From Deferribacterales bacterium (GTDB taxonomy: Bacteria; Chrysiogenota; Deferribacteres; Deferribacterales; Geovibrionaceae), in the NCBI GenBank assembly GCA_050253075.1, contig JBFWJS010000001.1, positions 660,675-724,674 on the forward strand: DNA of 64,000 bases. Reading direction: 5' to 3'. The translations under genes were made by a program, and so were the position numbers. Positions 10,151 through 39,171 of this stretch are shown here, piece after piece; positions within the stretch are counted from its first letter, which is position 1; every line of letters starts with the position of its first letter. Under the pieces are notes generated by a model. That model saw only the letters and a list, made by a program, of their open reading frames with translations, was not told the origin of the DNA and made no database searches.

Positions 10151-11185
10151 TTATTTGATGATTATATCGTAGGCCTGTTTTGCCGTGGCTCTGCCTATCT
10201 TCTGTGCGGGGATACCGTTTTCCAGAAGTTCGCTGAGGAGCGCACCGCTCTCAGACTCGGGTATTGCCATGAGCAGACCGCCTGATGTCTGCGGGTCGAA
10301 GAATACCATGTGGGCGTTGTCGCCCTTCTTTTCATAGAGGCATTTGCCTTCCAGATAATCCATGTTTGAATACGCACCTGCGGGGATGATGAAGTTCTTC
10401 GCATATTCGAATGCGCCCTCTAGGGTGTATGTAGCTTTGGAGTCTATCTCTATGGTGACGCCTGAGCCGGATGCCATTTCGTATGAGTGGCCTGCCATAC
10501 CGAAGCCCGTGACGTCTGTACATGCGTGTACATTGTGCTTACGCATAATGCGTGAAGCAGTTCCGTTGCTCATGAGCATAACGTCTGTCACTGCGGCTAT
10601 GTCTGCCTTAGACGCTTCCTGAGCTTTCAGCGCTGTCGATATCAGCCCGATGCCGAGGGGCTTTGTATATATGAGTACGTCCCCTTCCTTAGCGCCGACG
10701 TTTTTATATATCTTTCCGTCTGTTATCTTACCTGTTATGGAGAAGCCGAGCTTGATCTCAGGGTCGTCCACCGTGTGTCCGCCTGCGAGGGCACAGCCCG
10801 CTTTATTGAACTCGTCCACTGCTCCCTGCAGCATTTCTCTGATGACATCACCGCCTATGGAGCAGTTATACAGCAGGACGCTGAGGGCTGTGACAGGGTC
10901 TCCGCCCATTGCGTAGACGTCGCTTATAGAATTGAGCGCAGAGATACGGCCAAAGCTGTACGGGTCGTCCACCACAGGGGTGATGAAGTCCACCGTCTGG
11001 ACAAGGTAAAGCCCGTTGCCCATATCGAACACACCTGCATCGTCACCGGTCTCAAAGCCGACAAGCAGCTCGTCCGGTCTGTTGATCTTCAGGCCATGAA
11101 GTGTTTCTGCGAGGTCCGCCGGACCCATCTTAGCGGCTCAGCCGGCGGCTTTAGCGTATGAGGTCAGCGGTCTATTTGTTCTCAT
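10151..11185 (-). CDS. selD: Selenide, water dikinase, selenocysteine-containing (344 aa)
   Basis: Reads MRTNRPLTSYAKAAG-UGA-AAKMGPADL from ATG 11185 (RBS GGAG), with UGA at 11140..11138. Also DDAGV, QTVDFITP, GGHT, DVTGFG and DPQTSGGLL. The ORF track starts it too late, at 11128. Confidence 0.95.
11112..11126 (-). promoter_or_regulatory. Putative SECIS element of selD
   Basis: GGGTCC-GGC-GGACCT hairpin with a G-first loop 17 nt after the UGA. Confidence 0.6.
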
Positions 11186-13471: not shown

Positions 13472-13544
13472 TCCCCGATAGCTCAATCGGCAGAGCAATT
13501 GACTGTTAATCAATAGGTTGCTGGTTCAAGTCCAGCTCGGGGAG
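13472..13544 (+). tRNA. tRNA-Asn(GTT), CCA not encoded
   Basis: Acceptor stem TCCCCGA/TCGGGGA, D arm GCTC/GAGC, anticodon arm ATTGA-CTGTTAA-TCAAT, T arm GCTGG-TTCAAGT-CCAGC. Confidence 0.97.
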
Positions 13545-13547
13545 TTT
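13499..13547 (+). repeat. att site (tRNA-proximal)
   Basis: TTGACTGTTAATCAATAGGTTGCTGGTTCAAGTCCAGCTCGGGGAGTTT; 47/49 identical to 39092-39140. Confidence 0.95.
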
Positions 13548-13548
13548 T

Positions 13549-13577
13549 AAAAGCCCTTCATTACGAAGGGCTTTTTT
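13549..13577 (+). terminator. Intrinsic terminator for tRNA-Asn supplied by the island (probably bidirectional)
   Basis: AAAAGCCCTTC-ATTAC-GAAGGGCTTTTTT. Confidence 0.85.
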
Positions 13578-17811: not shown

Positions 17812-18679
17812 TAATCTTATATAGATGTAAGAAAATGACTGGCTATTTGACACTCTAAATAGCCAGTTCACTTAATATTTCTTAATATTCTCAATAAAAA
17901 ACTATCACATATAGCGTGACCCATTATAGATTTTGGTAAACATAGGTGAGCATGCGTTGATAACGCCAAGAAGTACCACCTAATGTACCATTGTACTATG
18001 ATGCAATATTGCATCAATCTGAACTAGAAAATTACTATAGAAAAATCATAAGACTCTGCAACACACTATGTAAATAAAATTGATCTCAAAAATCTGTGTA
18101 GCTAAAAGATAAGGCTTTTGCAGAAATAAATTTGCAAATGTTATACAAAAATTGCGTATATGGATATTCTTTGCAAAAGTCTTTGCATTTGCTGGACATT
18201 CGTGTCGCTAAAATCAATAATTAATCTTTAAAAATGAATAGTTAATGGTGGTTGACGAAATGTAGAAATTGAGGAAGTTAGGCTCAAAGAACAAGTAGTA
18301 GTAAAAATAACTGCTTCAGTGGCAGTTTTATGGATGCTCCGGTTGCAGGAATCTGAGTTATGACAATCGGTGGGATTCTGACAGACGTGATAGATATGGC
18401 TATAGCGATGCGTAGCGACCCTCTGTTTAGTAAAATTAACCGGACTGTGAGCCTTTGGTGGGCTATCTGGTTAGTGTTGGCATTCCATTTTAGTGTTGGA
18501 CGTTTTAGCGTTTATACGAACATTATTCCCTTTGGCTATATTGCTGTCACCTTTGTTTCCGAGTTTATAATATGTATGCAGTCCGAGCAATTGGATATAT
18601 GTAAACCTGTGATGTTATCTGTATTAGATTATGTAAAACAGATAATCATAATTAGATAATATGTGCTAGGTGTGTTTCG

Positions 18680-18922
18680 TCAAACATTGTACCTGAGTTT
18701 TTCCAGTATGATTTTTTCTATCTCCTCAGCATCAGGGTATCTTCTCTGTTCCAGCCTTGAGAAGGCTAATTTATCGTCAATATACACAGCGAACTCGCTT
18801 TTCTGCTGACCTGGTTTGATTTCTATTATCGCGGAGTCCATTCTGTTTTTCAGTTCTGCGGCGAGACCCGCCGCCAGAGGCTGATGGCCTCAGGAAGGGC
18901 AGAATTCTATTATTACTTTCAT
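18680..18922 (-). CDS. SelT/SelW/SelH (Rdx) family selenoprotein, 80 aa, CxxU
   Basis: RBS AAGGAG; MKVIIEFCPS-UGA-GHQPLAAGLAAELKN...GQQKSEFAVYIDDKLAFSRLEQRRYPDAEEI; UGA at 18892..18890; not in the ORF track. Confidence 0.92.
18855..18878 (-). promoter_or_regulatory. Putative SECIS element of the Rdx gene
   Basis: TCT(G)GCGGCG-GGTCT-CGCCGCAGA; G-first loop 21 nt after the UGA. Confidence 0.75.
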
Positions 18923-18935
18923 GATTTACTCCTTG

Positions 18936-19268
18936 TTATTTATTTTTATCCCGAATGCAGCACTTCGCGGCAGGCTTTGTGTTTTCATAGGATTCATTTC
19001 TCAGCAGATTAATGATACCGACCGCAAGCTGGCTGTCACAGATAAAGTAGCATCTCTGTGAACCATCCTGAGTAAAATCAACGATGCCCGCATTGCGGAG
19101 AACTGTGAGATGCTGCGAAATATTTGACTGTGAGAAAGGCAGTATGTCATGAATATCTGTAACACATTTTGTTCCATTATCCAGGAGCTCTATAACAATC
19201 TGGAGCCGAACAGGATGTCCCAGAGCTTTAAGAAGAGCAGACCAGTTTTTGTCAAATTTTACAGTCAC
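18936..19268 (-). CDS. ArsR/SmtB-family repressor (GTG start at 19268 or 19277)
   Basis: LKALGHPVRLQI, SQSNISQHLTVLRNAGIV and a C-terminal CC pair. Confidence 0.9.
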   Translation of the reverse strand: MTVKFDKNWSALLKALGHPVRLQIVIELLDNGTKCVTDIHDILPFSQSNISQHLTVLRNAGIVDFTQDGSQRCYFICDSQLAVGIINLLRNESYENTKPAAKCCIRDKNK

Positions 19269-19283
19269 AGCTGTCACTCCAGA

Positions 19284-19327
19284 TAATCATATTAGAATAT
19301 TCTAATATGATTAAGGCTTATTGTCAA
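19284..19327 (-). promoter_or_regulatory. Sigma70 promoter with an overlapping ArsR-type operator
   Basis: TTGACA-17 bp-TAGAAT; perfect 30-bp palindrome TAATCATATTAGAAT|ATTCTAATATGATTA at 19284-19313. Confidence 0.85.
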
Positions 19328-19372
19328 ATATCTTTGCTATATTTATTACCCATTTACAAAAAGACGATTGTG

Positions 19373-19765
19373 TTACTTCTGCTCAGCAATCCATTTTAAA
19401 ATAGCTTATTTTATCTCGTTTATCGTTTTCTGGCAAAAGTAAGTTTCTCTTCTTCAGTACCTTCTGCTGATGATGGTTCAGGAAAACTCCAGTGAATTCT
19501 TTTTTAATACTGGGGAAGATATGGCATTTCTCTGCGGCCTCTCTGTTACATACGGTGATGACATAAATTATATCAGAGCCCCTGCTTGAAAAGATCGAAG
19601 ACACTGTCTGTCTGCCTGAGATGTCTATACCATCCTCTTGCATAACCTTTGCCACGTATGGATTCAGTGTGCTTTCTGCCTTAAACTTCTCTGGTGCAAA
19701 TTGGTTCACTTCGTCATCTGACTTCTGGTACTGTTATGGATACAGGCAAAAAGAACTTTTTTCAC
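19373..19765 (-). pseudogene. arsC: Arsenate reductase (LMW-PTP type), multiply frameshifted
   Basis: Pieces in different frames: VKKVLFACIHNSTRSQM / TLNPYVAKVMQEDGIDIS / VFDLFKQG / YVITVC..AEKC.IFP / RIHWSFPEPS. Confidence 0.85.
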
Positions 19766-19889
19766 GATGCTCAACTTTCAAATGAAATGATTTTATAAAA
19801 TGTTGTCTGCAATTGTAAAACAAAATAATATTTTGATGATTGCCGGATCATGTTATAGTTATTTGACATTCGTGTGACTGAAGCGCTTG

Positions 19890-21104
19890 TCAGAAGTATC
19901 TTCTGATGCGCAGTTCAATCCTTGCTGCTGCAGGCTTTTCGCCGTATTCGGTATACTTTTCTCTGGAGAGTGCGGTTGCTTTCAGTTTCAGTTCGTAATT
20001 TGTGAATCCGGTGTATGTCACTTCCGGGGATGCGGAAAAACTGCCGTCATCTGTGTTTAGTATAAGCGTGAGTGCAGGAGTCAGATAAAGCACGTCAAAA
20101 GGTTCTTTAACTGATGCTCTGAAATACAGATAATCCTGCATTGCGAAGTTTCTGAGAACAGCCTTATCCGCCCTGTAGAATTTTTCCATCTCGTTTTCTG
20201 TATAGCCATCAGACCTGTGATAATACTCGCTTATGAAAGTTATTTCGTTTTCTGTAAGATATCTGACACCTATCAGGTAATTATCCGATGTCTCCTTTGA
20301 CGGGCCAAGCGGAGTGTAAAGCTTGTAATCCTGAAATTTTGCATATTCTCCATGCAGCTCAAAAGCTGATGTAAGGTTTTTTGAAAAGTCGAATCCGTAT
20401 TTAATCCCGTCGGATTCCACTGATGTAAACATAAAGTCTATGTCAGTATCGTATAAGAGCAGGTACAGTTTTCCTGCATAGCCTTTGCCGTCTGCGCCGG
20501 ACATACTTCTGTTCATGTCGTCGTTAATGTAATAAATCACAGGAGTTACTGTAAAATTTTTGAGTGCACCTCCGACATTTTTTATATAGTCCGCCGAAAT
20601 CAGGTAATGCCCCTCAAGAACTGCTTCCGGGTCATCAGGATTCTTCTGTCTGTCTATGAGAGCCGCCGGGCTGAAAGCGTAGCCTTTGCCCCATTTAATG
20701 TTTTTTTTGCCTGCATAAAGAGTGAAGTTCGGCGACGCTGACCAGCTTGAGTATCCTTCGAAAAATTTTGTAATCTGACGGTAGTCGCCTGTATCTTCTT
20801 TGTAGCCAGATATGTCTGATATGAAAGCAAAATTAAAATCATTGATTTCATATGAGCCGTTCAGGCGCAGTCTTGCGTCTGCTGACCATGCGGTATCCTG
20901 CGGTTCTTCATTTCTGAATCTTGTGCTGTAGCCGGCTGTATCTTTGTCGTAGTCATATGCCGCAGATATAAACTCAGCGTAGCCTCCAAACATATATGGT
21001 TTTTTTTCTATTTCACTCAGATTAAAAGAGTAATCAGATGCCTGCACTCCTGCTGATAAAAACAGGCTGAGCGATAAAACCCAGCCTGATACGTTTCTTT
21101 TCAT
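19890..21104 (-). CDS. Exported, probable outer-membrane beta-barrel protein
   Basis: Signal peptide, alternating aromatic strands, GKKNIKWGKG and C-terminal RRYF. Confidence 0.7.
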   Translation of the reverse strand: MKRNVSGWVLSLSLFLSAGVQASDYSFNLSEIEKKPYMFGGYAEFISAAYDYDKDTAGYSTRFRNEEPQDTAWSADARLRLNGSYEINDFNFAFISDISGYKEDTGDYRQITKFFEGYSSWSASPNFTLYAGKKNIKWGKGYAFSPAALIDRQKNPDDPEAVLEGHYLISADYIKNVGGALKNFTVTPVIYYINDDMNRSMSGADGKGYAGKLYLLLYDTDIDFMFTSVESDGIKYGFDFSKNLTSAFELHGEYAKFQDYKLYTPLGPSKETSDNYLIGVRYLTENEITFISEYYHRSDGYTENEMEKFYRADKAVLRNFAMQDYLYFRASVKEPFDVLYLTPALTLILNTDDGSFSASPEVTYTGFTNYELKLKATALSREKYTEYGEKPAAARIELRIRRYF

Positions 21105-21829
21105 CTGATTTCCTGCATACGTGACATAAAGTCCATCGTGAATATCTCGTCAGGGAATTCACGGCTTTTCACCTTTGCGAATATCATGACTGATTTATAG
21201 CCTTTGTAAAGCGGTGAATCGGTTTCTATCACAGCGGGGCGTTTTATGCCGTCCCCGAAATCTTTTACATCGCTGAAATGCAGTGTTTTTATCAGCATCT
21301 TTTCATCCGTCAGACAGTCGATAGATATTGGAAGCATGGTTTTTTTGTCTGCTGTTATAGTGACTTTGGCGTATGCCACAGTTTTAGTCTTTGCTTTCAG
21401 ATACAGTACGTATCTGTCACTGGATTCCTCCATCAGCTCCACATCGTACTCCTGCGTATAGTCGAGGCTCATGATGTCTGCATTGTTGAATACGCCGCCT
21501 ATGACAGACTGGAGGCTTGTAATTCTCACAGGCCGCCCGACATTAGGGATATACAGCCACATATTGTCGCCGAGACGGAGAGTGCTGCGTCCGTTTTCGC
21601 TGGCCGGCGATAAAAACAGAGATGATATTTTATCATTGCCTTTTTTAACCGTATAAAGCACAAATTCTTTGCTGTCTCCGTCCGGCTCTATATTTATCAG
21701 TTTCCGGTATGATTCGTAGCTGACAGGAGAGAGGTTTCGGTCAATTATACGCAGTATTTCGGATGGTTCCTTCGCAAGTGCGGAGACGGCAGACAGTGAA
21801 AGAACGATAATTATAAGTATCTTTTTCAT
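21101..21829 (-). CDS. LolA-like outer-membrane lipoprotein-sorting protein
   Basis: Signal peptide; FLSPASENGR..L..GDNMWLYIP, GGVFNNAD and C-terminal FPDEIFT. Confidence 0.8.
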   Translation of the reverse strand: MKKILIIIVLSLSAVSALAKEPSEILRIIDRNLSPVSYESYRKLINIEPDGDSKEFVLYTVKKGNDKISSLFLSPASENGRSTLRLGDNMWLYIPNVGRPVRITSLQSVIGGVFNNADIMSLDYTQEYDVELMEESSDRYVLYLKAKTKTVAYAKVTITADKKTMLPISIDCLTDEKMLIKTLHFSDVKDFGDGIKRPAVIETDSPLYKGYKSVMIFAKVKSREFPDEIFTMDFMSRMQEIR

Positions 21830-21837
21830 ACGTTCAC

Positions 21838-23076
21838 CTACACGTGCCTGAGGGCTTTGATGGGATCCATTTTCGAAGCCTTGAAAGCCGGCTGGATACT
21901 GGCCAGCACGGCTACCAGTATGACTGTTACAGATACGGCTGCAAGCTGCGTGTATTCAACAGCGGCGGTGAGAAGTATATCCTCCTGTCTGCCGAAATTA
22001 AAAGTAATCTTTGAGGCGTTGACCGCTGCCACAGTCATGACGCTTGCGATACTCCCTGCCGCGGCGCCGATTGTGCCAAGCAGGAATCCTTCGGTCAGAA
22101 ACATCATGGTTATCTTTATCGGCCGCGTACCTATGGCCGCTGCCGTGCCTATCTCGCGCATACGCTCGTATACAGCCATTATCATAACGTTCAGTACGGA
22201 GATCATTACTACGGCCACCAGCAGGATTTTCACAAAAAGGGTCATAAGGTCTATCATTCTTACGATATTGGCAAATGGAGAAATTGCCTCCCATGAATGT
22301 ACGTCAAATACACTCTGGCCTTTCGGGTTTATAAATCCGCCCACCTTAGCGGTGAATTCCTTTTCAAAAGAATGGAGTTTATTAAAGTCTTTCAGCCTGA
22401 CAGCTATTTCGCTTATCTCCGGTTCTTCCATGCGGAGTATCTCCGCAGCGTCGTCTATGTGTACATATCCGTCACGTCCGCCCGGACCTGTGGCGCTCTC
22501 CACTATGCCTGAGACTTTGAGCTGTTTTCCGTTGACAGAGCCGTCAGAGTTTGTCGCTATCACAACCACGGTGTCTCCGGTTTTAACCTTCATGGAGTTA
22601 GCGAAGAGTCTGGGTACTATTATTTCACCCCTGCTGAGGGTTTTGGAACCTTCAGATATTCTGTCCGGCAGGATCGGCGTCACTTTGAACTCCCTGTCAG
22701 GGTCTATGCCGTTCAGGCGGATATTCGAAGTTTCTGAAAATGTGGAGAACATACCGCCGAATTTTATTCTGTAGGAGACCGCCTCAATCTCTTCGAAATC
22801 TTTTATGATCTGTTCGAATTTGTTAACCATCATCGGCTTCATATTCATGTGCAGGGGGAGTGTTTCGATAGCGCCCATATATCCCTTGCGGTGCACTTGG
22901 ATGTGGCCTGTCATGGAGTCCGTTATCTGTGAGACCATCATGGATTTGAAAGATCCTGTAACTGAAACAAAGACGGAGACAAACAGCACACCGATGACAA
23001 CAAGCGACACGGTGAGAAGCGTTCTTCTTGAATATCTGAACAGGTTTCTGGACGATATTTTAAGTATGTTCAGCAT
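21838..23076 (-). CDS. ABC transporter permease (MacB/FtsX/LolE type)
   Basis: RNLFRYSRRT, ERMREIG and PAFKASKMDPIKALRH; 1+3 TM topology. Confidence 0.9.
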   Translation of the reverse strand: MLNILKISSRNLFRYSRRTLLTVSLVVIGVLFVSVFVSVTGSFKSMMVSQITDSMTGHIQVHRKGYMGAIETLPLHMNMKPMMVNKFEQIIKDFEEIEAVSYRIKFGGMFSTFSETSNIRLNGIDPDREFKVTPILPDRISEGSKTLSRGEIIVPRLFANSMKVKTGDTVVVIATNSDGSVNGKQLKVSGIVESATGPGGRDGYVHIDDAAEILRMEEPEISEIAVRLKDFNKLHSFEKEFTAKVGGFINPKGQSVFDVHSWEAISPFANIVRMIDLMTLFVKILLVAVVMISVLNVMIMAVYERMREIGTAAAIGTRPIKITMMFLTEGFLLGTIGAAAGSIASVMTVAAVNASKITFNFGRQEDILLTAAVEYTQLAAVSVTVILVAVLASIQPAFKASKMDPIKALRHV

Positions 23077-23750
23077 GACAGCACCCCGTCTTCCATCACA
23101 TAAACCTTTTCCGCAATTTCGACTATCTTCGGGTCATGGGTGGAAAAGATAAAACTTGTGCCGAATTCGTCTCTCATGGATTTCATCAGGTTTATTATTT
23201 TCATGGAGGTGTCATGGTCAAGGTTCGCAGTCGGCTCGTCCGCAAGGATGAGGGCGGGCTCAGTCACAAGCGCCCTTGCCACAGCTGTTCTCTGTTTCTG
23301 ACCGCCTGAGAGCTGTGCGGGCCGTTTAGCCGCATGCTCCAGCATGCCTACGGCAGAGAGAACTTTTTCAACCCGTTTCTTCCGGATATCCGCCGGCAGA
23401 TTCTGCACCAGTATCAGCGGATACTCCACATTTTCGTAAACGCTAAGCACGGGCATCAGGTTAAAATCCTGAAATATGAATCCTATGTTTTCTCCCCTGA
23501 ATTTTGCGCTTTGGCTTCGGTTCATAGCGGATGGATTCTGTCCGCATACGGTTATGTTTCCCTCAGTAGGCCTGTCCAGACATCCTATTATATTCAGCAG
23601 CGTCGTTTTTCCGCTGCCTGAGGGACCCACAAAGCTGACAAAAGACGCCTCTTCGATAGAAAAACTGACATTATTTAATGCGTGAACCGGGTTCGAACCC
23701 CCGCCCATACCGTAAATCTTTGAAATACACTCAGCATTTACCAGTTCCAT
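23070..23750 (-). CDS. ABC transporter ATP-binding protein (LolD-like)
   Basis: GPSGSGKTT, LSGGQKQR and ADEPTANLD; RBS GGAGGTG before ATG 23750. Confidence 0.92.
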   Translation of the reverse strand: MELVNAECISKIYGMGGGSNPVHALNNVSFSIEEASFVSFVGPSGSGKTTLLNIIGCLDRPTEGNITVCGQNPSAMNRSQSAKFRGENIGFIFQDFNLMPVLSVYENVEYPLILVQNLPADIRKKRVEKVLSAVGMLEHAAKRPAQLSGGQKQRTAVARALVTEPALILADEPTANLDHDTSMKIINLMKSMRDEFGTSFIFSTHDPKIVEIAEKVYVMEDGVLSC

Positions 23751-23775
23751 AAACACCTCCAATACAGAAATAATA

Positions 23776-23791
23776 CGCAATTAAGATGCCA
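23776..23791 (-). promoter_or_regulatory. Putative sigma54 promoter
   Basis: TGGCAT-CTTAA-TTGCG with exact GG-N10-GC spacing, 26 bp upstream of the ATG. Confidence 0.7.
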
Positions 23792-23895
23792 TATGTAACT
23801 ATTTGATTAATAAAATAATTAGATATTTACGTGTGCATTTTCTGCTCACTGTATGGAAATATTAACACACCTTTATGATATAAACTTACGCATGT

Positions 23896-24753
23896 TTATT
23901 TCATGATAACTTCTGTATTATGGGTAGAGACAGCTATGCTGTTTTCTCCTGCTTTAACAAGTCTGAGAGTCACTGGGCTGCCATGTCCTGCTGTTTCGCT
24001 CAGAGATGTTATGTAAACCGGTATGCCGCTCCACTCGTATTCAAAAGTCTTGTGAATATGTGCTGCAAATATGGCTTTTACATCATGTTCTTTAATAAGC
24101 TCTGAGAGTTCATCTGTACTATTTCGCCATAGTGCATGGGTTATCCCCTGTTTTTTGTCATAAGGAGGGTGGTGCATGAAAAGAAGAATTTTTCTGTCTC
24201 TGGTCTCTGTAAGCTGTTTTCTCAGCCATCTCAGTTCATCTGCAGGAAAAAATCCAAGGAAAGTGTCAAGGAAAAGGAGTGTATATTCGCCGGCATCAAG
24301 CCTGAAATATGTTTTCCCGAAGTAATGCTTATAAAATGCAGGCTTTAAGCCGTTTATTCTTGCGTTGACCGAGTGCCCGCCCGGGATATGGTAGTATGGC
24401 AGCTGTTGATCCCAATATTGCTCCAGTTCGCTGATGTACTTTTTCCATTCGTCAGCACGTCCGTATTTTGTGACATCTGCCAGGTTTACCATAAAATCCG
24501 GTTTCAGCGACTGCGCATATTCAAGAGCGGCAATCCTTGGCGGACTTTCCCAGCGCATATCACCGAGCACCGCAAAAGTAAAATTATCTTGTGATGTATC
24601 CATATGCAGTTTACGGTCAGATATTATCAGCTGTGGTAAAGGAGAGCTTCCATGTATTGAATCAAAGCCTCCCAGCATCGCCATTGCCGTTATGTATCCG
24701 CCAGAGGACACTGCAGCTGTAATGATTAATATAGAGAATATAATCTTCCTCAT
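23896..24753 (-). CDS. Membrane-anchored calcineurin-like metallophosphoesterase
   Basis: GDMR, ADVT, PGGH (GNH variant), MHHPP and AHIH. Confidence 0.8.
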   Translation of the reverse strand: MRKIIFSILIITAAVSSGGYITAMAMLGGFDSIHGSSPLPQLIISDRKLHMDTSQDNFTFAVLGDMRWESPPRIAALEYAQSLKPDFMVNLADVTKYGRADEWKKYISELEQYWDQQLPYYHIPGGHSVNARINGLKPAFYKHYFGKTYFRLDAGEYTLLFLDTFLGFFPADELRWLRKQLTETRDRKILLFMHHPPYDKKQGITHALWRNSTDELSELIKEHDVKAIFAAHIHKTFEYEWSGIPVYITSLSETAGHGSPVTLRLVKAGENSIAVSTHNTEVIMK

Positions 24754-24757
24754 TTGT

Positions 24758-25927
24758 TTATATGACCTGCTTTAGATACGCAAAAGCTATGCAAAACATT
24801 GCAACCATCCATACAGGGGTTTTCCTGTACATCAGCAGTGCGAATGCCGCTACACACACGGCGAAGTCATAGCCCGAATGCACGCCTTTTACCCACACGG
24901 GGTTATAGAGAGCGGCAAGAAGTATGCCCACAACTCCGGCGTTTACCCCCTTTAACGCGGCGGATGCCCAGCTTCTGGATGAAAGATGATCCCAGAAGGG
25001 TAACACCGCCGGAACCAGCAGGAAAGTGGACATGAAAACACCGATAAGACACATAATACCAGTAATAATGCCTCCTGCGGATGTTCCGACGAACGAAGCG
25101 AATGTGAACAGAGGTCCCGGCACAAGCTGGGCTATGCCGTATCCTGAGAGGAAAATCTCATCAGTGAGATAGTGACCGCCTGCCGTCTCCGCCTGAAGCA
25201 GCGGGAGCACGACATGCCCTCCGCCGAAGACGAGTGAGCCTGCTCTGTAGAATATCTCGAACAGCTTCAGGTTATGATTGTCTGAAGCCGCCGCCAGCAG
25301 AGGAAGCCCGCCCAGGAGCACAAAGAAGACAGTAAGCATGAAGAGCGGTGTGCTGAAAGACAGTTTTGACGCTGGGGTTTCAGATGGTTCAGTATTTCTG
25401 TACATCACGTATCCGGCCGCACCGGCAAGGATTATAACCAACACCTGGACCAGAGGATGACTTAATACAAGAACAGCAGCTGCTGAAGCTGCGGCAAGCA
25501 GTCTGAGTCTGTTTTCACTGCAGAGCTTCACCCCCATAGACCATACGGCCTGCGCGACAACTGCCACTGTAAGCATAAGAAGACCTGGTATCACGAAAGA
25601 ATCCTTTAGAAATCCGAAACTGCCGAGCCCGTATGCCGCCGCAGCCATTACAAAAGCGGAAGGTGCTGTGAAGCCGAGCCACGCGGCAAACGCCCCTGCC
25701 ATTCCTCCTTTTTTGAGCCCAATGGCGAACCCTGTCTGACTGCTGGCCGGCCCGGGGAGGAACTGGCACATTGCGGCGAGATCGGCAAACTCTTTTTCAC
25801 TCAGCCACTTCCGGCTGTCTACAAATTCTCTGTGGAAATAACCCATATGGGCCACAGGACCGCCGAAACTCCGCACTCCCAGAGACAGAAAGACAGAAAA
25901 GATTTCAAACAGATTATTTATTCTCAT
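24758..25927 (-). CDS. chrA: Chromate efflux transporter (long-chain CHR)
   Basis: SFGGP..H, QFLPGPASSQ, VFGGGHVVLP and Q.VPGPLFTF. Confidence 0.93.
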   Translation of the reverse strand: MRINNLFEIFSVFLSLGVRSFGGPVAHMGYFHREFVDSRKWLSEKEFADLAAMCQFLPGPASSQTGFAIGLKKGGMAGAFAAWLGFTAPSAFVMAAAAYGLGSFGFLKDSFVIPGLLMLTVAVVAQAVWSMGVKLCSENRLRLLAAASAAAVLVLSHPLVQVLVIILAGAAGYVMYRNTEPSETPASKLSFSTPLFMLTVFFVLLGGLPLLAAASDNHNLKLFEIFYRAGSLVFGGGHVVLPLLQAETAGGHYLTDEIFLSGYGIAQLVPGPLFTFASFVGTSAGGIITGIMCLIGVFMSTFLLVPAVLPFWDHLSSRSWASAALKGVNAGVVGILLAALYNPVWVKGVHSGYDFAVCVAAFALLMYRKTPVWMVAMFCIAFAYLKQVI

Positions 25928-25987
25928 GCAATATTGCTCCTATGGGCCTCTCGTGTAATAATAGCAGATACTGAACAAGAGGGACGG

Positions 25988-27361
25988 ATGCTCCAGTTTT
26001 TTACATATATTTTTTACGGAATTACTTTTTTCGCTTTGGGGATTGTCATCACCGCAAAGGATCTCAAGATCAGCAAGCTGGCTCTCGCCCGCATACTGTG
26101 GATACTGGCGGTTTTCGGCTTTACCCACGGGGTTTACGAGTGGACCGAGCTTTATGTCATAATAGACGGTGGAGCTCCTTTATGGTTCAGCCGTCTCAGA
26201 CATATTCTCCTTTTCGCTTCGTTTGTTGCGCTGTATTTTTTCGGATTGGAACTGGTATTTATTTCGCTGGTAAAAAAATATAAAAAAGATCTGCCGGTTA
26301 TATACAGCCGTACCGCTTTTGTATTGCTGTCTGCTCTGCTTGTTTTTATCTGGCTTTCGGGAGCTGATGAAAGATATGTTAGGCTTTTTGTCGCTTTCCC
26401 AGGAGCTCTGCTTTCCGGAACCGGTTTGATAATTTACTCAACAACAGTCCGTGGGATGTCGCTAGAGGGTTCATACAATTTTGTATATTCCGGTGCGTTT
26501 ATGGTGCTGTATGCCATTGTTTCGGGGATTATACCCCATGAAGATGTGCCGGATATAATAATTTTAAGAGGGTTGTGCGCGGTAGGCGTGACATTCTTCA
26601 TTTACCGCGGGATGAACGTATTCGATCATGAAAAACTTATGATAATAGAGGAGCGGCTGAACAGATTTGCCATGTCGGAAAAACTCAATTCTATAGGTAA
26701 GCTTGCTGCAGGCATAGCCCATGAAATAAATAATCCTCTCACAAATGTGCTGCTGAAAACTGAGATGCTGAAATCAATGATTGAAAATCCAGAAGCACTG
26801 AGCAAGCTTGAAGGGATAGAAAGGAACGCGGACAGAGCATCAAAGATAGCCAAGGAACTGCTGTATTTTTCCAGAGAAGGAAATGAAAGCAAGTCGGTTA
26901 TCGACATTAATGACGTGATAACAAGCGCAGTCTCTCTCATGGGACAGCACAAGTTGCTGTGCAGAACGGTTCTCGCTTCGCAGCCGATATATATAAGAGG
27001 GGTGTACTGGAAGCTGGAGGAGGTAATTATCAACCTTATACTGAACGCTGCAGATGCCTGCGGTATGAAAGGTGCTATAGATATAGCCTCTTTCGTATAT
27101 GACGAAAGCGCCGCGGTAAGAGTCACGGACAAAGGGTGCGGGATACCACCTGAAAACCTGACTAAAATATTTGATCCGTTCTTTACTACAAAAGAACCTG
27201 GGGAAGGGACCGGACTCGGCCTTTCCATATGCTATAATATCGTAGAACAGCACGGCGGCAGCATTTCTGTGATCAGCAGCCCAGGAAATGGGACTGAAAT
27301 AACGGTGCTGTTACCTATGGAGGCTTCTGATGAGCAGCAGAATACTGTTGACGGACGATGA
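25988..27361 (+). CDS. Multi-TM sensor histidine kinase
   Basis: About 7 N-terminal TMs; [25 protein letters not shown] and GTGLGL; likely ATG at 25988. Confidence 0.9.
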
Positions 27362-27983
27362 CGCGGAATTGCGGGAAACAGTCAGTGAAATCCTCTCAGA
27401 ATGCGGTTTCGAAGTGATGTGCGCGGAGAACTCTGAGGAAGCTCTTAAACTGGCGGAAACATTCAAACCCCATTTGGTGATTACGGATAACATGATGCCG
27501 GGCATAGGCGGCATGGCACTTATCAGTTTGATAAAAAGCAGAATGCCGTCTGTAAAGGTCATTATGATAACTGCGTTTGCTACAGTTGACAACGCTGTAA
27601 ACGCCATGAAAGCCGGGGCGGATGACTACCTTGCCAAACCTTTCAAAAAAGAGGAACTGGCTGTTGCGGTGAGAAAATGCATAGAGGAGGGGAAATTTGC
27701 CAGATGCCTGCTGCAGATGAATATGGATGATACGCTTTCCTGTATATCTAACAGCATAAGGCGGCAGATACTTTTTATGCTGTATGAAGAAGGTAAAATG
27801 CGTTTTATGGACATTACCCGCAAACTGGGGATAGATGATCACACAAAAGTCAATTTTCACCTGAAGGCGCTCAGACAGAATGACATGATTCATCAGAATG
27901 ATGAGAAAGAATATGTATTGAGCTCCGGCGGTATGAATATAATTGACTGCCTTAAAGTGATCTCAGGAAAAGTATCTTATTAA
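27330..27983 (+). CDS. Response regulator with an ArsR-like winged-helix output domain
   Basis: REC motifs (DDD, D.MMP, T, KPF) plus ISNSIRRQIL..KVNFHLKAL. Confidence 0.88.
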   Translation: MSSRILLTDDDAELRETVSEILSECGFEVMCAENSEEALKLAETFKPHLVITDNMMPGIGGMALISLIKSRMPSVKVIMITAFATVDNAVNAMKAGADDYLAKPFKKEELAVAVRKCIEEGKFARCLLQMNMDDTLSCISNSIRRQILFMLYEEGKMRFMDITRKLGIDDHTKVNFHLKALRQNDMIHQNDEKEYVLSSGGMNIIDCLKVISGKVSY

Positions 27984-28003
27984 CCTCTGCAAATATGCCA
28001 TAT

Positions 28004-28029
28004 CAATTGTGAATTTTTATTCACAATTG
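28004..28029. promoter_or_regulatory. Perfect inverted repeat upstream of the cytochrome gene
   Basis: CAATTGTGAAT-TTTT-ATTCACAATTG. Confidence 0.6.
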
Positions 28030-28143
28030 TGTCTTAAATGTCAAATTCTATTATCTGGAACGTTGTTTCATTCGGTTTTATAGTGTTATCAGGATCATAT
28101 CTTAATACGGGATATGTTCAGATTTCATCTATGAGAGGTTAAC

Positions 28144-30051
28144 ATGAAACAGCAGAATTTATTAAAAACCGTTTCAGTCATACTGATGGTCTTTTTAACC
28201 GCTATGCTGACATCAGCCGTCAGTTTTGCGGCTACCGTAAAAGGTACAGTTAAAGATGTTTCAGGTCAGGCTGTTGCTAATGCAGTAGTGTATTTTATTT
28301 CCGCTGCTGATGTAGAAAAGCTGGCATCAGTTCCAACAGAGTTTAAAAGGGATTCATTAAATGATGAACCGCTTGAGGATTTGCTCGCAGCGAACAAATC
28401 TAAATATAAGGCCGCAGTTACAGATACCAGCGGAAAGTTCAGCATAACCGGGGTGGACAGTGCAAAATATTTCGCCTATGTGGCTCCGGCGGGTGCCAAA
28501 TACCTTCCCGGCGGTGATAAATCAAGGAAATCTTTTACCGCTTCAGATATCAAAGGTTCACTTGATATTCTGGTTTCAGGTAATGTGCCTTCGGATGCTG
28601 AATATGTGGGTTCGTCGAAATGCCTTACCTGTCATAAAGAGTATATGAGCACAAAGAAAACACTGCATAAACTCGGAATAAAAAAGGCCGGAGCTGTCAG
28701 CGGACTGCAGGATCTTACAGATTTTGCCGAATTTGACAAAGGGCTTGATTTCCTGAAAAAAGGTCAGAAGATTTATCTGCATAATTACACAAAAGAGAGA
28801 AAATGGGATAAATACCTTATCTCCGCATATGAACCTAAAGATATGTCATCTGTTAGTTTTACTGCATTCTTTTTTACCGCTCCGGACGGTACAATTAAAG
28901 TCAGGATGGAAAATTATAGAAATCCGGCGGATCCCGCCCGCGAGTATCCGGTTGAGCTGACCTACGGAGGCGGACTGTATAAGCAGAGATACCTTCTGCG
29001 TATAGGTGACAACCTCTTCCCGTTCCTGCAGTTCAACCCGAACGGAGATGATTCTTACGGCGACAGAACAAGGCGCCAGTTCAGAGACTACCACGGTGAC
29101 TGGTTCTACGATGAGGAAAAAATGGCGCTCAAAGCTCCTAATACCGAGAAATCATTTGAGAAGAGCTGCGCCTCATGCCACTACAACGGCTACACTCTCA
29201 AAAAGAACGCATCAGGTAATTACATAGCAGGAGCCGCCAACGACCCCAAGGGCGAGGCCGATATTGACGGAGACGGCGTAAATAACGAACTGAACCTCGG
29301 CTGTGAGACATGTCACGGTCCCGGATCAGTACACTCCAAAGCAAAAAAGGCTGACAAAGCCGCCACAATAGTCAGCCCCGGCAAACTTACATCTGAAAGA
29401 GCCTCAGTGCTTTGCGGACAGTGTCATTCCAGACCTCAGGGTAATCTGAATAACGACCAGCCTGTGAACTCAAAATATGAGATGATGCTTCCAGGGACAA
29501 GCCGCAACACTTTTCTGGTGGACTATACAACAAGAGAGGATGCCGCTCAGAGCGACTTCTGGGCCGACGGTCTCCATTCAAAGTCACATCACCAGCAGTA
29601 TACAGATTTTATAAAGTCGTCCAAATACCGTAATGGAGAACAGCTCGTAACCTGCTCCGATTGCCACGACCCTCACGGCGGCACAGAGTTTGCGCATCAG
29701 CTTAAAGGGGACGCGGTTACAGCTAAGGCAACATACTGTCAGTCATGCCATACAGACAGATCAGACATTGAAAAACACACTGAAGAAGCTGTAGGTATGG
29801 CTCACGGAGAGGATACAGGAATCACCTGCACAAGCTGCCATTCCGTCAAAACAGCCCAGACAGGTGCAGGTTTCGGCAGAGGCGCCGAAACTGATGGAAA
29901 AAATTACTGGCAGAACGACATAACGACGCACCTGTTTACAAAACCGCCACGGATGCTGAATAAAGCGGTTGCGGGGGTTGATCCTCTGAAATCTATGCCT
30001 ACACCTTATACCAACGCTTGCGGCACATGCCACGATGTAAGCGGTAAATAA
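28144..30051 (+). CDS. Periplasmic octaheme cytochrome c with an N-terminal carboxypeptidase-regulatory-like beta domain
   Basis: Sec signal; eight CxxCH motifs: CLTCH, CASCH, CETCH, CGQCH, CSDCH, CQSCH, CTSCH, CGTCH. Confidence 0.9.
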   Translation: MKQQNLLKTVSVILMVFLTAMLTSAVSFAATVKGTVKDVSGQAVANAVVYFISAADVEKLASVPTEFKRDSLNDEPLEDLLAANKSKYKAAVTDTSGKFSITGVDSAKYFAYVAPAGAKYLPGGDKSRKSFTASDIKGSLDILVSGNVPSDAEYVGSSKCLTCHKEYMSTKKTLHKLGIKKAGAVSGLQDLTDFAEFDKGLDFLKKGQKIYLHNYTKERKWDKYLISAYEPKDMSSVSFTAFFFTAPDGTIKVRMENYRNPADPAREYPVELTYGGGLYKQRYLLRIGDNLFPFLQFNPNGDDSYGDRTRRQFRDYHGDWFYDEEKMALKAPNTEKSFEKSCASCHYNGYTLKKNASGNYIAGAANDPKGEADIDGDGVNNELNLGCETCHGPGSVHSKAKKADKAATIVSPGKLTSERASVLCGQCHSRPQGNLNNDQPVNSKYEMMLPGTSRNTFLVDYTTREDAAQSDFWADGLHSKSHHQQYTDFIKSSKYRNGEQLVTCSDCHDPHGGTEFAHQLKGDAVTAKATYCQSCHTDRSDIEKHTEEAVGMAHGEDTGITCTSCHSVKTAQTGAGFGRGAETDGKNYWQNDITTHLFTKPPRMLNKAVAGVDPLKSMPTPYTNACGTCHDVSGK

Positions 30052-30063
30052 AACTCAACTATT

Positions 30064-30111
30064 GCCGTCTCTGTTCGTTCCTCATCGCAAGGGTTCAGAG
30101 GCGGCTTTTTT
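30064..30111 (+). terminator. Terminator after the cytochrome gene
   Basis: GCCGTCTCTG...CAGAGGCGGC followed by a T tract. Confidence 0.65.
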
Positions 30112-30239
30112 CTAATGGAAACAGCGGCCTGTTTAGTAGCAGGCTCAACCTATAGGGTAAACTTTTCATAAATGCCTCCTCAAAATAACCGTGCGGATAG
30201 ATACTCCGCACGGTTATTTATTTCCACCTTTAAATATAT

Positions 30240-30264
30240 GGAACATTTACTGCTTTTAGTCGTT
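30240..30264 (+). promoter_or_regulatory. ECF-type autoregulatory promoter 1
   Basis: GGAAC-16 bp-CGTT, 10 bp before the sigma ATG. Confidence 0.7.
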
Positions 30265-30274
30265 AATATATATA

Positions 30275-30835
30275 ATGCACAGCGAAGAATTGATTTTAAA
30301 ACTGCTGGAAACCGGCGACAGAAGAACTTTTGATCTGCTGATAAGCACTTATCAGGGCAGAGTGTTCAGTCTGTGCTATTACATGACTGGAAACCGAGAG
30401 GACGCGGAGGACTGCACACAGGAGACATTCATAAAAGTTTTCCGCGGAATTGATTCCTTCACTCCTGACGCGTCTCTTTACACATGGATACGTAAAATTG
30501 CGGTAAACACCTGCCTTGATCATATGAAAAAGCCGTTTAGGCTGCTGAAATTCATAAACATACACGGCGATAACGCAGTGGACATTACGTCTGGAGCAGA
30601 CCCCGAGAAAGAATGTCTGAACAGCGAGTCGGACAGAATACTCCACCAGGCTGTGATGAAGCTTCCTGTAAAGTTGAGGACGGTCATAATACTGCGTGAG
30701 CTGGAGGAGCTTTCATACAGCGAAATAGCGGCGACGGCCGGGATCTCAGAAGGGACTGTCAAATCAAGAATATCCAGAGCCAGAGAGGAACTGAGGAATC
30801 TGCTCAGAGATTTTACGGAACAAAAATTGAAATAA
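30275..30835 (+). CDS. ECF sigma factor
   Basis: DAEDCTQETF, TWIRKIAVN and LSYSEIA..GTVKSRISRAR. Confidence 0.93.
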   Translation: MHSEELILKLLETGDRRTFDLLISTYQGRVFSLCYYMTGNREDAEDCTQETFIKVFRGIDSFTPDASLYTWIRKIAVNTCLDHMKKPFRLLKFINIHGDNAVDITSGADPEKECLNSESDRILHQAVMKLPVKLRTVIILRELEELSYSEIAATAGISEGTVKSRISRAREELRNLLRDFTEQKLK

Positions 30836-30841
30836 ATCGTT
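30817..30841 (+). promoter_or_regulatory. ECF-type promoter 2, overlapping the 3' end of the sigma gene
   Basis: GGAAC-16 bp-CGTT, upstream of the anti-sigma gene. Confidence 0.65.
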
Positions 30842-30861
30842 TAGTAATTCAGAGGCGTGAA

Positions 30862-31287
30862 ATGGACTGTATAAAAACCAGCGAAAATCTGTCTGCGTAT
30901 CATGACGGAGAACTTAACCGGGAAGAAGAGGAAAATATCCGGCTGCATCTTGATAGCTGTATGACGTGCAGGTCTGAATATGCAGGCATTCAAGACCTCA
31001 GCATGATGTTTAAGGGCGCAGAAAGACCGTCCGCGCCGCCTGAACTGACAGACAGAATACATGAAGCCGTCCGCAAGGGCAGATTGCCTGCCTTTAGTGG
31101 TTATGCAGTGGCAGCAGCGGCGGTGCTGATATTCATCACAGGCGTGTCTGCCGGTCTGTCCCTGCTCAGGCAGGCTGACAGCTACAGTGCTGATGCATCT
31201 GTCAGGGAATATTATTCATTTGCATCTTTTGATCCGCTGCCGGATGAATCTCTTGGCGGCGTATATATATCAATGATGAGGAACTGA
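30862..31287 (+). CDS. Zinc-binding (ZAS) membrane anti-sigma factor
   Basis: MDC..LSAYHDGEL..HLDSCMTC plus one TM helix. Confidence 0.88.
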   Translation: MDCIKTSENLSAYHDGELNREEEENIRLHLDSCMTCRSEYAGIQDLSMMFKGAERPSAPPELTDRIHEAVRKGRLPAFSGYAVAAAAVLIFITGVSAGLSLLRQADSYSADASVREYYSFASFDPLPDESLGGVYISMMRN

Positions 31288-31288
31288 C

Positions 31289-31741
31289 ATGAGAAATAAT
31301 ACACTTAAAGCGATCCTGATACTGTCGGCTGCGCTGAATCTTTCGCTTATAACCGGAATAGGCATCTATTCATTTTCCGGTAACAAAGCTTTTTCATGCG
31401 CTCATTCCGGCGGCGGCTACGTCTTTGAAAAACTGAATCTCAGAGATGAGCAGAAGAAAAAGATAACCGGACTGGCGGAGGATTTTCACAGCAGACTCGA
31501 CAGGATGAGCGGAGAAATAGCGGAATCAAATAAGAAGCTTATAAGGGAAATAGTCTCCTCTGAATACCCGGACGGAGTAACCGACGGGCTCATAGGTGAT
31601 ATAAGCGGCAGACAGAGGGAGATACAGGAACTGATAGTCAGGCATTTATTTGAGATAAAAGCGGAGATGGACAGCGATCAGCGTGAGCAGTTTTTCAGGC
31701 TCATAGAGGACGCTTTCCCATCAGGCAGAGGAGTTTATTAA
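31289..31741 (+). CDS. Periplasmic heavy-metal sensor / CpxP-like protein
   Basis: SAALNL TM anchor, LNLRDEQ and MDSDQREQF. Confidence 0.75.
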   Translation: MRNNTLKAILILSAALNLSLITGIGIYSFSGNKAFSCAHSGGGYVFEKLNLRDEQKKKITGLAEDFHSRLDRMSGEIAESNKKLIREIVSSEYPDGVTDGLIGDISGRQREIQELIVRHLFEIKAEMDSDQREQFFRLIEDAFPSGRGVY

Positions 31742-32394
31742 TGTATCTGTTGAAAGACATAACAAAAAACTACGGCACACAGCAGGTGCTGAAAGGGGTC
31801 TCGCTGGAACTGAACAGGCGGGAAATGGTCTCTGTAATGGGTAAATCCGGCGCAGGGAAAAGCACACTTCTGGGCATCATGGCTGGGCTTGTGAGGCCCG
31901 ACGCCGGAAGAGTGGAGTTTGAGGGGCTTGAGATGGGGGGGCAGAGCGAAGACGCGCTGGCTGACTTCAGAATGAGAAATGTCGGAATCGTGTTTCAGGA
32001 TTTCAGGCTGATCCCCTCGCTGTCTGTAGCAGACAATATTCTTATAGCCGCTTTCCCTGTAAAAGATGTTTCTAAAGCGGAAAAGACGGACCGCATGGAA
32101 ACACTGACCGAAAGAGTGGGGCTTAAGGATATGCTCGGGAAAAAAGCGGACAACCTCAGCGGCGGTGAAAAACAGAGGGTCGCCATAGCCAGAAGCCTGA
32201 TAAACAAGCCCTCGTTTGTTCTTGCGGACGAGCCAACCGGCAACCTGGATGAAAAAACATCCGGCAGCATAATGGAGCTTTTTGCAGAGCTTCACTCTGT
32301 GCTGGATACCACGTTTGTGATAGTGACTCATGACGAGGAGATAGCTGAAAAAACTCAGAAAATATACAGGATGGCAGACGGGAGATTATCATGA
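31741..32394 (+). CDS. ABC transporter ATP-binding protein
   Basis: [17 protein letters not shown] and ADEPTGNLD. Confidence 0.92.
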
Positions 32395-37748: not shown

Positions 37749-38942
37749 TTATTTAACTCGTCTTAATCCCTTCCCTGTTTTTCTAGCTGTGGTAATGCTG
37801 GTGGCTATCTTATTAGCAGCCTCGTGCAGCGGATCGTTTTGCACATGGGCATAGTAGTACTCAGTAGTTGTAATACGTTTGTGTCCCAATAGTTTTGAAA
37901 TGAACTCAATGTTGATACCTCCTGAGATAGCTGTTGAGGCAAAAGAGTGACGCAAGTCATGGATTCTTACATCTTCCAGTCCGGCTTCTTTGCGGATACG
38001 TTCCCAAATCTTTTGTAAACCTATTAGGCGGGAGTTTTCGAATTTACCGAAACAGACATACTCATTGACCTTATAAGCGTTCTCGAGCATATCCAAAACC
38101 TCGTGGGATACAGGCACATTCTTCTCGCCGGTTTTCGATTTTGGTATGTGGAGCAAATTAAGCTCATTCTTGATATTTTCCCACTTGAGGGTCAGTATTT
38201 CTTCTTTTCTGCACCCTGTGTACATTAAAAGCCTTAAAGCGAGTACCGCTGAGTAGTATTTTTCTTCATATTTCTCTAGAACATCTTCAAGCCTTTTGGT
38301 CTCATCAGGGGTGAGAAACCTCTGCACCGGAGTTTCTTTGTATTTCTGAGTGTGGACACATGGATTAGAATTTTGAGGTATGTATCTCCATTTCTCAGCC
38401 AGAGTAAACATCTTGCGAAGCAGTGCGTGTACTCTGTTTGCCTGGACAGGGGTTGACTTGCCGATTTTGTGATGAAGCTTTGCAGTGTCTTCAGGTGTAA
38501 TGCTTTTAAGAGGTTTTTTGCCAAACGCTGGCAGAATAAGTCTTTCCAGGTAGCTTTCATTGGTTTTCACGGTGCCGACACTGTTATTAGGTCTTGCATG
38601 GTGCTCCAGATATATTTCAGCAAACTCTGAGAACAACATCGCTTTGCGCTTTTCCTGCTTCTCTTTAAGAATGTCTGTTCCGCCCTGAGCCTCTGTGAGT
38701 TTAGTCCTGGCTTTTTTCCTTGCTTCATCGGCAGTGATATTGGAAGCTCTGAAAAGTGTCATAACCTTCTGTCGGCCTTCTTCATTTCTATACATGATTA
38801 CATATGATTTCGTAGGTTTACCTGTAACACGCAGGGCAAAGCCTTTTAGCTCAGTATCCCAAATGTAGTAATACCCGCTCCCTTGTGTCGCTGGTTTAGC
38901 ATTTCGTACGACAGCGTCAGTGAGCTTCTTCTTTGTGTTCAT
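37749..38942 (-). CDS. int: Tyrosine integrase with an N-terminal arm-binding domain
   Basis: WDTELKGFALRV; catalytic TGCR, KTG, HDLRH and LGH...Y; RBS GGAG before ATG 38942. Confidence 0.95.
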   Translation of the reverse strand: MNTKKKLTDAVVRNAKPATQGSGYYYIWDTELKGFALRVTGKPTKSYVIMYRNEEGRQKVMTLFRASNITADEARKKARTKLTEAQGGTDILKEKQEKRKAMLFSEFAEIYLEHHARPNNSVGTVKTNESYLERLILPAFGKKPLKSITPEDTAKLHHKIGKSTPVQANRVHALLRKMFTLAEKWRYIPQNSNPCVHTQKYKETPVQRFLTPDETKRLEDVLEKYEEKYYSAVLALRLLMYTGCRKEEILTLKWENIKNELNLLHIPKSKTGEKNVPVSHEVLDMLENAYKVNEYVCFGKFENSRLIGLQKIWERIRKEAGLEDVRIHDLRHSFASTAISGGINIEFISKLLGHKRITTTEYYYAHVQNDPLHEAANKIATSITTARKTGKGLRRVK

Positions 38943-38956
38943 CACGGTCTCCAAAA

Positions 38957-39022
38957 ATGTAAGCACTATGTTAGCAGTATTATCGGTAAAACACGGTAAA
39001 AGCTAGTAAGACTGAGTAAGTC
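38957..39022 (+). promoter_or_regulatory. Putative arm-type sites and phased accessory-factor repeats
   Basis: ATGTAAGCACT-ATGTTAGCAGT, then four 10-bp units with a GTAA core (38983-39022). Confidence 0.65.
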
Positions 39023-39091: not shown

Positions 39092-39140
39092 TTGACTGTT
39101 AATCAATAGGTTACTGGTTCAAGTCCAGTTCGGGGAGTTT
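39092..39140 (+). repeat. att site (displaced 3' half of tRNA-Asn)
   Basis: Direct repeat of 13499-13547 with mismatches at 39113 and 39129. Confidence 0.95.
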
Positions 39141-39141
39141 C

Positions 39142-39171
39142 AAAAGGCCTTACTTCGGTGAGGCCTTTTTT
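39142..39171 (+). terminator. Probable original tRNA terminator
   Basis: AAAAGGCCTTAC-TTCG-GTGAGGCCTTTTTT. Confidence 0.85.

Follow-up and report, generated by a model that had tools for sequence, protein, structure and literature searches.

A predicted Rdx/SelW-family selenoprotein gene behind an ArsR-type repressor on an integrative island of a Deferribacterales bacterium

The window analysed here, a stretch of 64,000 nucleotides from the genome of a Deferribacterales bacterium, carries on its minus strand two adjoining genes that encode an ArsR/SmtB-family repressor of 110 aa (18936..19268) and an 80-aa protein of the Rdx/SelW family with a CxxU motif (18680..18922). Judged from its sequence, the Rdx gene is a real selenoprotein gene of an ordinary family that lies in a new clade and operon context, and the pair represents a conserved modular operon, ArsR-(DsrE)-(TrxB)-Rdx-(methyltransferase), in reduced form. 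Sequence and comparison give the gene identities, the conservation of the TGA codon and of the SECIS element, the Sec machinery, the island, the operator and the linkage to trxB. SelW-like proteins are a known prokaryotic selenoprotein family and, in marine data, one of the most abundant, according to the accessible parts of PMC9312934, PMC2398784 and PMC13188914, and such proteins are already listed for Geobacter sulfurreducens in this literature (in the portions available of PMC13188914, PMC9312934, PMC2398784 and PMC1794560). The hidden Rdx gene by itself is ordinary, and Rdx selenoproteins are common.

The region 18680..19327 had been singled out in an earlier note as a selenoprotein operon, and all the sequence features described there were found in place. 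These include an ArsR gene with a C-terminal CC, the Rdx ORF 13 bp downstream with a strong ribosome-binding site, and a TTGACA-17-TAGAAT promoter whose -10 box lies in a perfect 30-bp palindrome, more precisely in its upstream arm.

The Rdx gene and its recoding signals

The Rdx ORF begins 13 nt past the ArsR stop codon and is preceded, within the spacer between the two genes, by the ribosome-binding site AAGGAG (18929..18934, minus strand), 6 nt ahead of the ATG. Its residues 8-11 read C-P-S-TGA, the TGA lying at 18892-18890, and the 65-aa entry that represents this protein in the protein collection starts after the TGA. When U is read as C, the product matches both family profiles above their cut-offs, namely PF10262 (55.9 bits, E 5e-15, cut-off 22.6) and TIGR02174 (39.1 bits, cut-off 34.2). 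The U column is occupied by Cys in two solved Rdx-family chains, 3dex and 2ljk, and by TGA in 159 of 160 homologous loci, the remaining one being interrupted by a contig end. These 160 loci combine the best 80 of 361 from species genomes with the best 80 of 223 from a scan of part of the metagenomes, and the search patterns contained the SECIS-coded peptide, so that the sample is biased to Sec forms. The proposed assignment to the Rdx/SelW family, with Cys or Sec aligned at the UGA, is thus borne out.

A predicted bacterial SECIS hairpin lies inside the gene (18857..18875, minus strand), with a 6-bp stem and a 5-nt GGUCU loop, 21 nt past the UGA. It satisfies the bacterial consensus quoted in the available text of PMC13188914, which asks for a loop of 3-9 nt, a stem of 4-16 bp, a distance of 16-37 nt from the UGA and a G within the first two loop positions. 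The fold of the single sequence was not taken as proof, since its z-scores are weak (-2.08, -1.18 and -0.24 for 48, 63 and 93 nt, respectively), and the support is comparative. Among 35 distinct rows of 38, 95.1% of the stem cells are paired and 3 of 7 pairs are changed on both sides. The pairing or covariation score was reached by none of 500 shuffles and the two pair-type counts by 101 and 228 of the 500; the rows are related to one another. Codon choice in the stem is narrow, e.g. AGT for Ser in 33 of 33 cases. The SECIS-like hairpin of the earlier note hence holds on covariation and consensus fit, its single fold remaining marginal.

The host genome encodes selA, selB, tRNA-Sec (selC) and selD, so the Sec-decoding host that the note had called for is present, and selA was found in all five carrier genomes checked. 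By every test applied the window Rdx gene is that of a selenoprotein, with Sec insertion predicted. Another Rdx gene with a TGA is located elsewhere in the host genome (G000:C4:237324-237530); its product is 27% identical to the window Rdx, and it adjoins a Sel1-repeat-like gene, a context common to the same-genus genomes G001 and G003. At the other end of the window gene, a promoter-like site TTGACG-16-TATTAT (18640-18683, minus strand) overlaps the Rdx stop, and 12 nt from the operator end are repeated behind it; as an operator this site was rejected, its score being -15 bits.

The island and the host genome

The pair is carried by an integrative element, as the earlier note had proposed. 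The island spans about 13,500-39,150 (25.6 kb) and is delimited by att repeats, an integrase and low GC at 14-20 kb. Its left att copy (13499-13558) lies within a tRNA-Asn gene (13472..13558, plus strand), and its right copy (39092..39151, plus strand) is a 60-bp repeat 93% identical to the 3' part of that gene. The tyrosine integrase is encoded at 37749..38966 on the minus strand. In the relative G003 the genes flanking the island are 0.74 kb apart, corresponding to an empty site. A second relative, G002, bears an island of about 43 kb with the same integrase (98%) at the tRNA-Asn site, with which the window island has its backbone in common and not its cargo. The island ORFs that were scanned included no recognisable conjugation genes.

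Upstream of the ArsR promoter, an arsC-like pseudogene is spread over three reading frames (19383..19765, minus strand), in agreement with the decay noticed earlier. This decay can be explained by the two intact arsC-like genes that the host keeps elsewhere in its genome, both of which score below the TIGR02691 cut-off. The cargo at 19890-35088 comprises LolA-like/MacB/ABC sets, a metallophosphoesterase, a chromate efflux transporter of the ChrA type (24758..25927, minus strand), a two-component pair, a multiheme cytochrome c, an ECF sigma factor with a zf-HC2 anti-sigma factor and a Metal_resist gene; chrA and the ECF set also flank the ArsR-Rdx module in L048/L123. An element at 18115-18310 borders the variable cargo on the left, and a 10-nt core of it recurs at 19865. 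This element occurs twice, in inverted orientation, around a restriction-modification-like block in the G002 island, and once at C5:14127 of the host; it is possibly a cargo recombination site. The segment 35100-35950 (minus strand) has no ORF of 100 aa or more, and its sequence suggests a broken permease-like membrane-protein gene.

The host selD gene (10151..11185, minus strand) contains an in-frame TGA upstream of the ATG used by ORF callers, so that SelD is itself a predicted selenoprotein. The gene is separated from the tRNA-Asn att site by 2.3 kb, the distance given in the earlier note. The functional meaning that the note had attached to this nearness was rejected, because selD is a core gene beyond attL, and relatives have either nothing or other DNA at the site; the proximity is incidental.

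The conserved operon and its repressor

The window Rdx belongs to a clade of 39 loci, mostly from Geobacteraceae/Desulfuromonadaceae records, whose SH-aLRT support is 100 in a quickly computed tree of 86 rows (79 genome loci and 7 others). The clade is marked by the sequences Cx[SP]U-G-[HQ]..P, KSEFAV and FSRL, and the window branch is long (1.2 in this tree). The neighbourhood survey that the earlier note had suggested found an ArsR ortholog at 26 of the 39 loci, a full trxB at 18, DsrE at 10, a 205-aa methyltransferase at 26 and a DnaJ-like gene at 11. It also found chrA at three, acr3 at two and, by tblastn, arsC at two. The remaining 121 Rdx loci contained none of these eight genes; upstream sequence of more than 2.2 kb was available for 72 of them. 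The 39 loci are related and partly duplicated (L119 = L040, L123 = L048 and L127 near L051), and two genomes are represented by two loci each. At 7 of the 39, as well as in L241 and L242, Rdx comes directly after ArsR, so the layout of the window recurs. In L043 a broken trxB lies between the two genes.

The window copy is without trxB, dsrE and methyltransferase. Among 61 genomes of the host order, the ArsR ortholog was found in the window genome and in G006 only. The latter, from the same family, has the arrangement ArsR (64% identical)-DsrE-TrxB-Rdx(TGA), adjoining transfer-type genes whose names were read from the ORFs alone. A search of the plasmid collection at E 1e-15 gave no ArsR ortholog. 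G006, G061 and G062 have trxB elsewhere as well as in the operon; in G063 no second copy was found. The TrxB of the window host shares just 38% identity with the TrxB of the operon type. Since no Thioredoxin Pfam match was found among the 145 neighbour ORFs scanned, Rdx is the recurrent thioredoxin-like neighbour of the operon trxB.

The reverse search with the ArsR profile gave hits in 24 of the 151 genomes of the class of G061. Rdx lies downstream at 10 of these 24 ArsR loci and a full trxB at 8, 7 of them together with Rdx, while 13 have neither. This co-occurrence corresponds to a Fisher p of 0.002, for related loci that are not independent; four of them lie on contigs that the forward set also contains, and in one case the contig stops 1.9 kb downstream. 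The 14 loci without Rdx in the region examined carry phosphorylase-like, DsrE, other methyltransferase, CGGC, DnaJ-like, NifS-like or YeeE genes, which indicates that the ArsR regulon is wider than the reductant pair. A 316-aa open frame in L235 (G151:C93) joins the ArsR ortholog to a methyltransferase as an in-frame fusion.

The window ArsR matches PF01022 (HTH_5, E 5.9e-13) and the metalloregulator profile NF033788 (76.4 bits, cut-off 55), and its modelled winged-helix fold, together with a structure search, is consistent with the ArsR/SmtB family. Its start is more likely GTG 19268, from which residues are numbered here, than GTG 19277, because the latter runs into its own GGAG and the former is where a homolog with 89% identity starts. 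The sigma-70-type promoter TTGACA-17-TAGAAT (19299..19327, minus strand) matches at 11 of 12 positions and ranks first among the 12 promoter-like sites in 18000-20000, where shuffles gave 6.4 sites. The palindrome at 19284..19313, the predicted ArsR operator, is one of only two perfect 30-bp palindromes in the 3.04-Mb genome, the other being located at G000:C2:128297-128326. A core of about 22 bp, ATATTAG-AATATT-CGAATAT, is kept in relatives. Together with the -35 box it stands upstream of all 28 ArsR genes of the forward set, and the operator pattern is present in 47 of 50 regions overall. The copies in relatives are imperfect palindromes, so perfection, which is peculiar to the window copy, is not required. 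A matrix made without the window site ranked the window operator first genome-wide; its score is 34.5-37.5 bits, and 37 of the 38 training sites score 28-46. These features make autorepression of ArsR at the palindrome probable, in line with the prediction of the earlier note.

Two further sites in the host resemble the operator. One, at G000:C2:250300-250319, matches 19 of 20 positions of the core just upstream of a TsoY-family gene. A weaker motif with 3-6 mismatches precedes tsoY in three relatives that have no ArsR ortholog; the motif is probably the site of a host regulator, and the island ArsR might bind there too. The other site (G000:C7:79910-79939, 22.6 bits) lies over a TTGACA promoter ahead of an acr3-like gene that scores below the TIGR00832 cut-off.

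The ArsR subfamily comprises at least 676 proteins, of which the best 120 were compared. C35 and C73 are invariant (120/120), the tail CC (C103, C104) is present in 104 and missing from 16, and C77 occurs in 43 of the 121 alignment rows. In the structure model (mean pLDDT 77), C35 is on strand 34-36 and C73 on strand 71-76. The tail CC falls in a low-confidence tail about 14 residues beyond the last predicted helix, past the part that aligns with 6j05. The two strands that carry C35 and C73 are neighbours in winged-helix folds, so that a joint sensing site of these residues is plausible. C35 aligns with CadC C58, while the second alpha-3 Cys is replaced by Thr (K-C-V-T-D against L-C-V-C-D in CadC), so the Cys-x-Cys of the EcArsR/CadC type is absent in the alignment. 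The alpha-4 Cys pair of CmtR, the alpha-2/alpha-5 pair of SqrR/BigR and the vicinal alpha-3 pair of RexT, where the window ArsR has a single Cys, are likewise absent. The invariant pair fits none of the four characterised sites compared.

Function of the module

The best explanation of these data, to which we give an even chance, is that the pair encodes a thiol-stress-inducible, ArsR-controlled selenoprotein reductant that is recycled by thioredoxin reductase. ArsR would repress its own promoter by binding the palindrome over the -10 box, and thiol-reactive stress would alter its cysteines and release it from the DNA. Sensing could proceed through C35 and C73, aided by the tail CC where present. 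The co-transcribed Rdx, made with Sec, would then act as a small thioredoxin-like reductant, and the gene linkage suggests an electron flow from NADPH through TrxB to Rdx, for which the island copy would use the TrxB of its host. More specifically, the clade may be the dedicated Sec partner of TrxB, the two forming a mobile NADPH-TrxB-Rdx(Sec) system in anaerobes, with a repressor that senses thiol stress via a Cys pair of a new kind, C35 ahead of alpha-3 and C73 in the wing; this is a tentative proposal, rather less likely than not.

A precedent for redox sensing by an ArsR-family repressor comes from RexT of Nostoc PCC 7120, which controls the thioredoxin gene trxA2, is released by oxidation and is reset by its own product, as described in the accessible part of PMC8960804. 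RexT resembles the window ArsR in having a Cys in the alpha-3 region and in controlling a thioredoxin-fold gene, and differs from it in its vicinal C40-C41, the window ArsR having a single Cys there plus an invariant wing Cys. Unlike trxA2, the window target is a predicted selenoprotein gene, and the sequence match between the repressors is distant (E 6.6e-6).

Several points weaken the thiol-stress reading. The window copy is without trxB and the host TrxB is distant from the operon type; the window Rdx branch is long, the loci have common ancestry and in part are duplicates, and G063 seems to have no trxB other than that of the operon. A full adjacent trxB is missing from 21 of the 39 clade loci (some contigs are short), Rdx is missing from 14 of the 24 ArsR loci in the region examined, and the methyltransferase is linked more often (26/39) than trxB (18/39).

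The earlier note had placed its emphasis on metalloids, pointing to the vicinal C-terminal Cys residues that bind As(III) in some ArsRs. Arsenic, antimony or other metalloid resistance, in which the tail CC would bind As(III), methylarsenite or Sb(III) and induce Rdx as a reductant, appears unlikely to us. In its favour are the arsC remnant beside the promoter, chrA on the same island, the frequency of the tail CC among ArsR homologs, and the binding of arsenite or methylarsenite by C-terminal Cys residues of AfArsR and SpArsR, as given in the available part of PMC8960804. The window ArsR shares its ArsR/SmtB fold with EcArsR, AfArsR, SpArsR, CadC and CmtR, C35 corresponds to CadC C58, and its C-terminal Cys pair is alike in kind to that of AfArsR and SpArsR. 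The window pair apparently lies further out than that of AfArsR; in sensors of the AfArsR/SpArsR type the vicinal Cys residues stand at the end of alpha-5. One independent locus, recorded as L048, L123 and L223, carries an arsR-arsC-acr3 set of its own next to the module, with chrA upstream, a glycosyltransferase above the TIGR04283 arsenosugar cut-off is encoded about 4.5 kb downstream in L065, and the 22.6-bit site precedes the host acr3-like gene. Against this, the two clade loci with arsC/acr3 and the one such case among 22 ArsR-first loci are all the same locus, where these genes are on the opposite strand under a separate ArsR; no co-oriented ars operon was found, and the operon differs in this from those of known As(III)/MAs(III) sensors. 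In addition, Thr stands in place of the second alpha-3 Cys, the tail CC is not invariant and lies in the low-confidence tail, and the host keeps its two intact arsC-like genes. An ArsM identity of the linked methyltransferases was rejected, their score of 49.3 being far below the cut-off of 263. The metalloid evidence is real but thin, and the case for arsenic is weak: the CC is present, but the invariant cysteines are C35 and C73, and the recurrent partners of Rdx are TrxB, DsrE and methyltransferases.

A function in sulfur or selenium handling is likewise improbable. Here ArsR would respond to persulfide or to species of selenium, and the chalcogen compounds that DsrE, YeeE, NifS-like proteins and methyltransferases traffic or methylate would be reduced by Rdx together with TrxB. 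Persulfide sensors such as SqrR, BigR, HlyU and YgaV control regulons with sulfur-carrier genes, and they are the closest folds to the window ArsR in the structure search. DsrE is found at 10 of the 39 clade loci, YeeE/YedE genes in L224, NifS-like genes directly behind ArsR in L238 and L240, and TehB-like methyltransferases in L065 and L230, and the 19/20 core match lies ahead of the host TsoY-family gene. The alpha-2/alpha-5 Cys pair, which all known persulfide-sensing ArsRs have according to the part of PMC11672702 available, is however absent, and the BigR model gives 48 bits, its cut-off being 155. Of 22 loci, only one has YeeE and two have NifS, the related tsoY motif is found in three relatives without an ArsR ortholog, and the DsrE, YeeE, NifS-like and methyltransferase genes are all absent beside the window copy. 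The pair might also be a decaying hitch-hiker, left after the loss of trxB, dsrE and methyltransferase and of little use to its host. The broken arsC next to it, partners missing from the host genome except for a distant TrxB, the broken trxB of L043, the long Rdx branch and the other Rdx selenoprotein gene of the host fit this account. It seems very unlikely nonetheless, as both frames, the ribosome-binding site, the SECIS, the promoter and the operator are intact, the operator score is inside the training range, and direct ArsR-Rdx adjacency recurs at other loci.

With respect to known selenoprotein systems, the window Rdx is like other bacterial SelW/Rdx proteins (PF10262, TIGR02174) in its length of about 80 aa, its N-terminal CxxU and its in-gene SECIS. 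Its clade is separate and is tied to one ArsR subfamily and TrxB rather than to peroxiredoxin, the SelW-like neighbour reported, as Prx/SelW gene pairs, in the accessible text of PMC13188914 and PMC2398784. The former, a 2026 review, counts SelW-like proteins in its available part among the families known almost only from bioinformatics, and describes the SAO and Tso selenoprotein operons. The Tso/SAO operons of Haft and colleagues also group selenoprotein genes, with an ArsR/SmtB regulator, TsoR (NCBIfam); the window ArsR scores 31.5 bits with the TsoR model against 115, and its operon has one selenoprotein gene and other partners. No report of an ArsR-TrxB-Rdx operon was found in full-text searches of the open literature, and the novelty of the ArsR/TrxB-Rdx linkage is provisional.

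The significance of the finding rests on the TrxB link and the C35/C73 pair of ArsR, not on arsenic. An Rdx clade with a fixed regulator, a fixed operator and an adjacent trxB offers a direct test of the Rdx reductant and of the inducing stress. If TrxB is indeed the partner of Rdx and C35-C73 the sensor, a physiological reductant of a SelW/Rdx protein would be known, and the ArsR family would gain a new sensing site.
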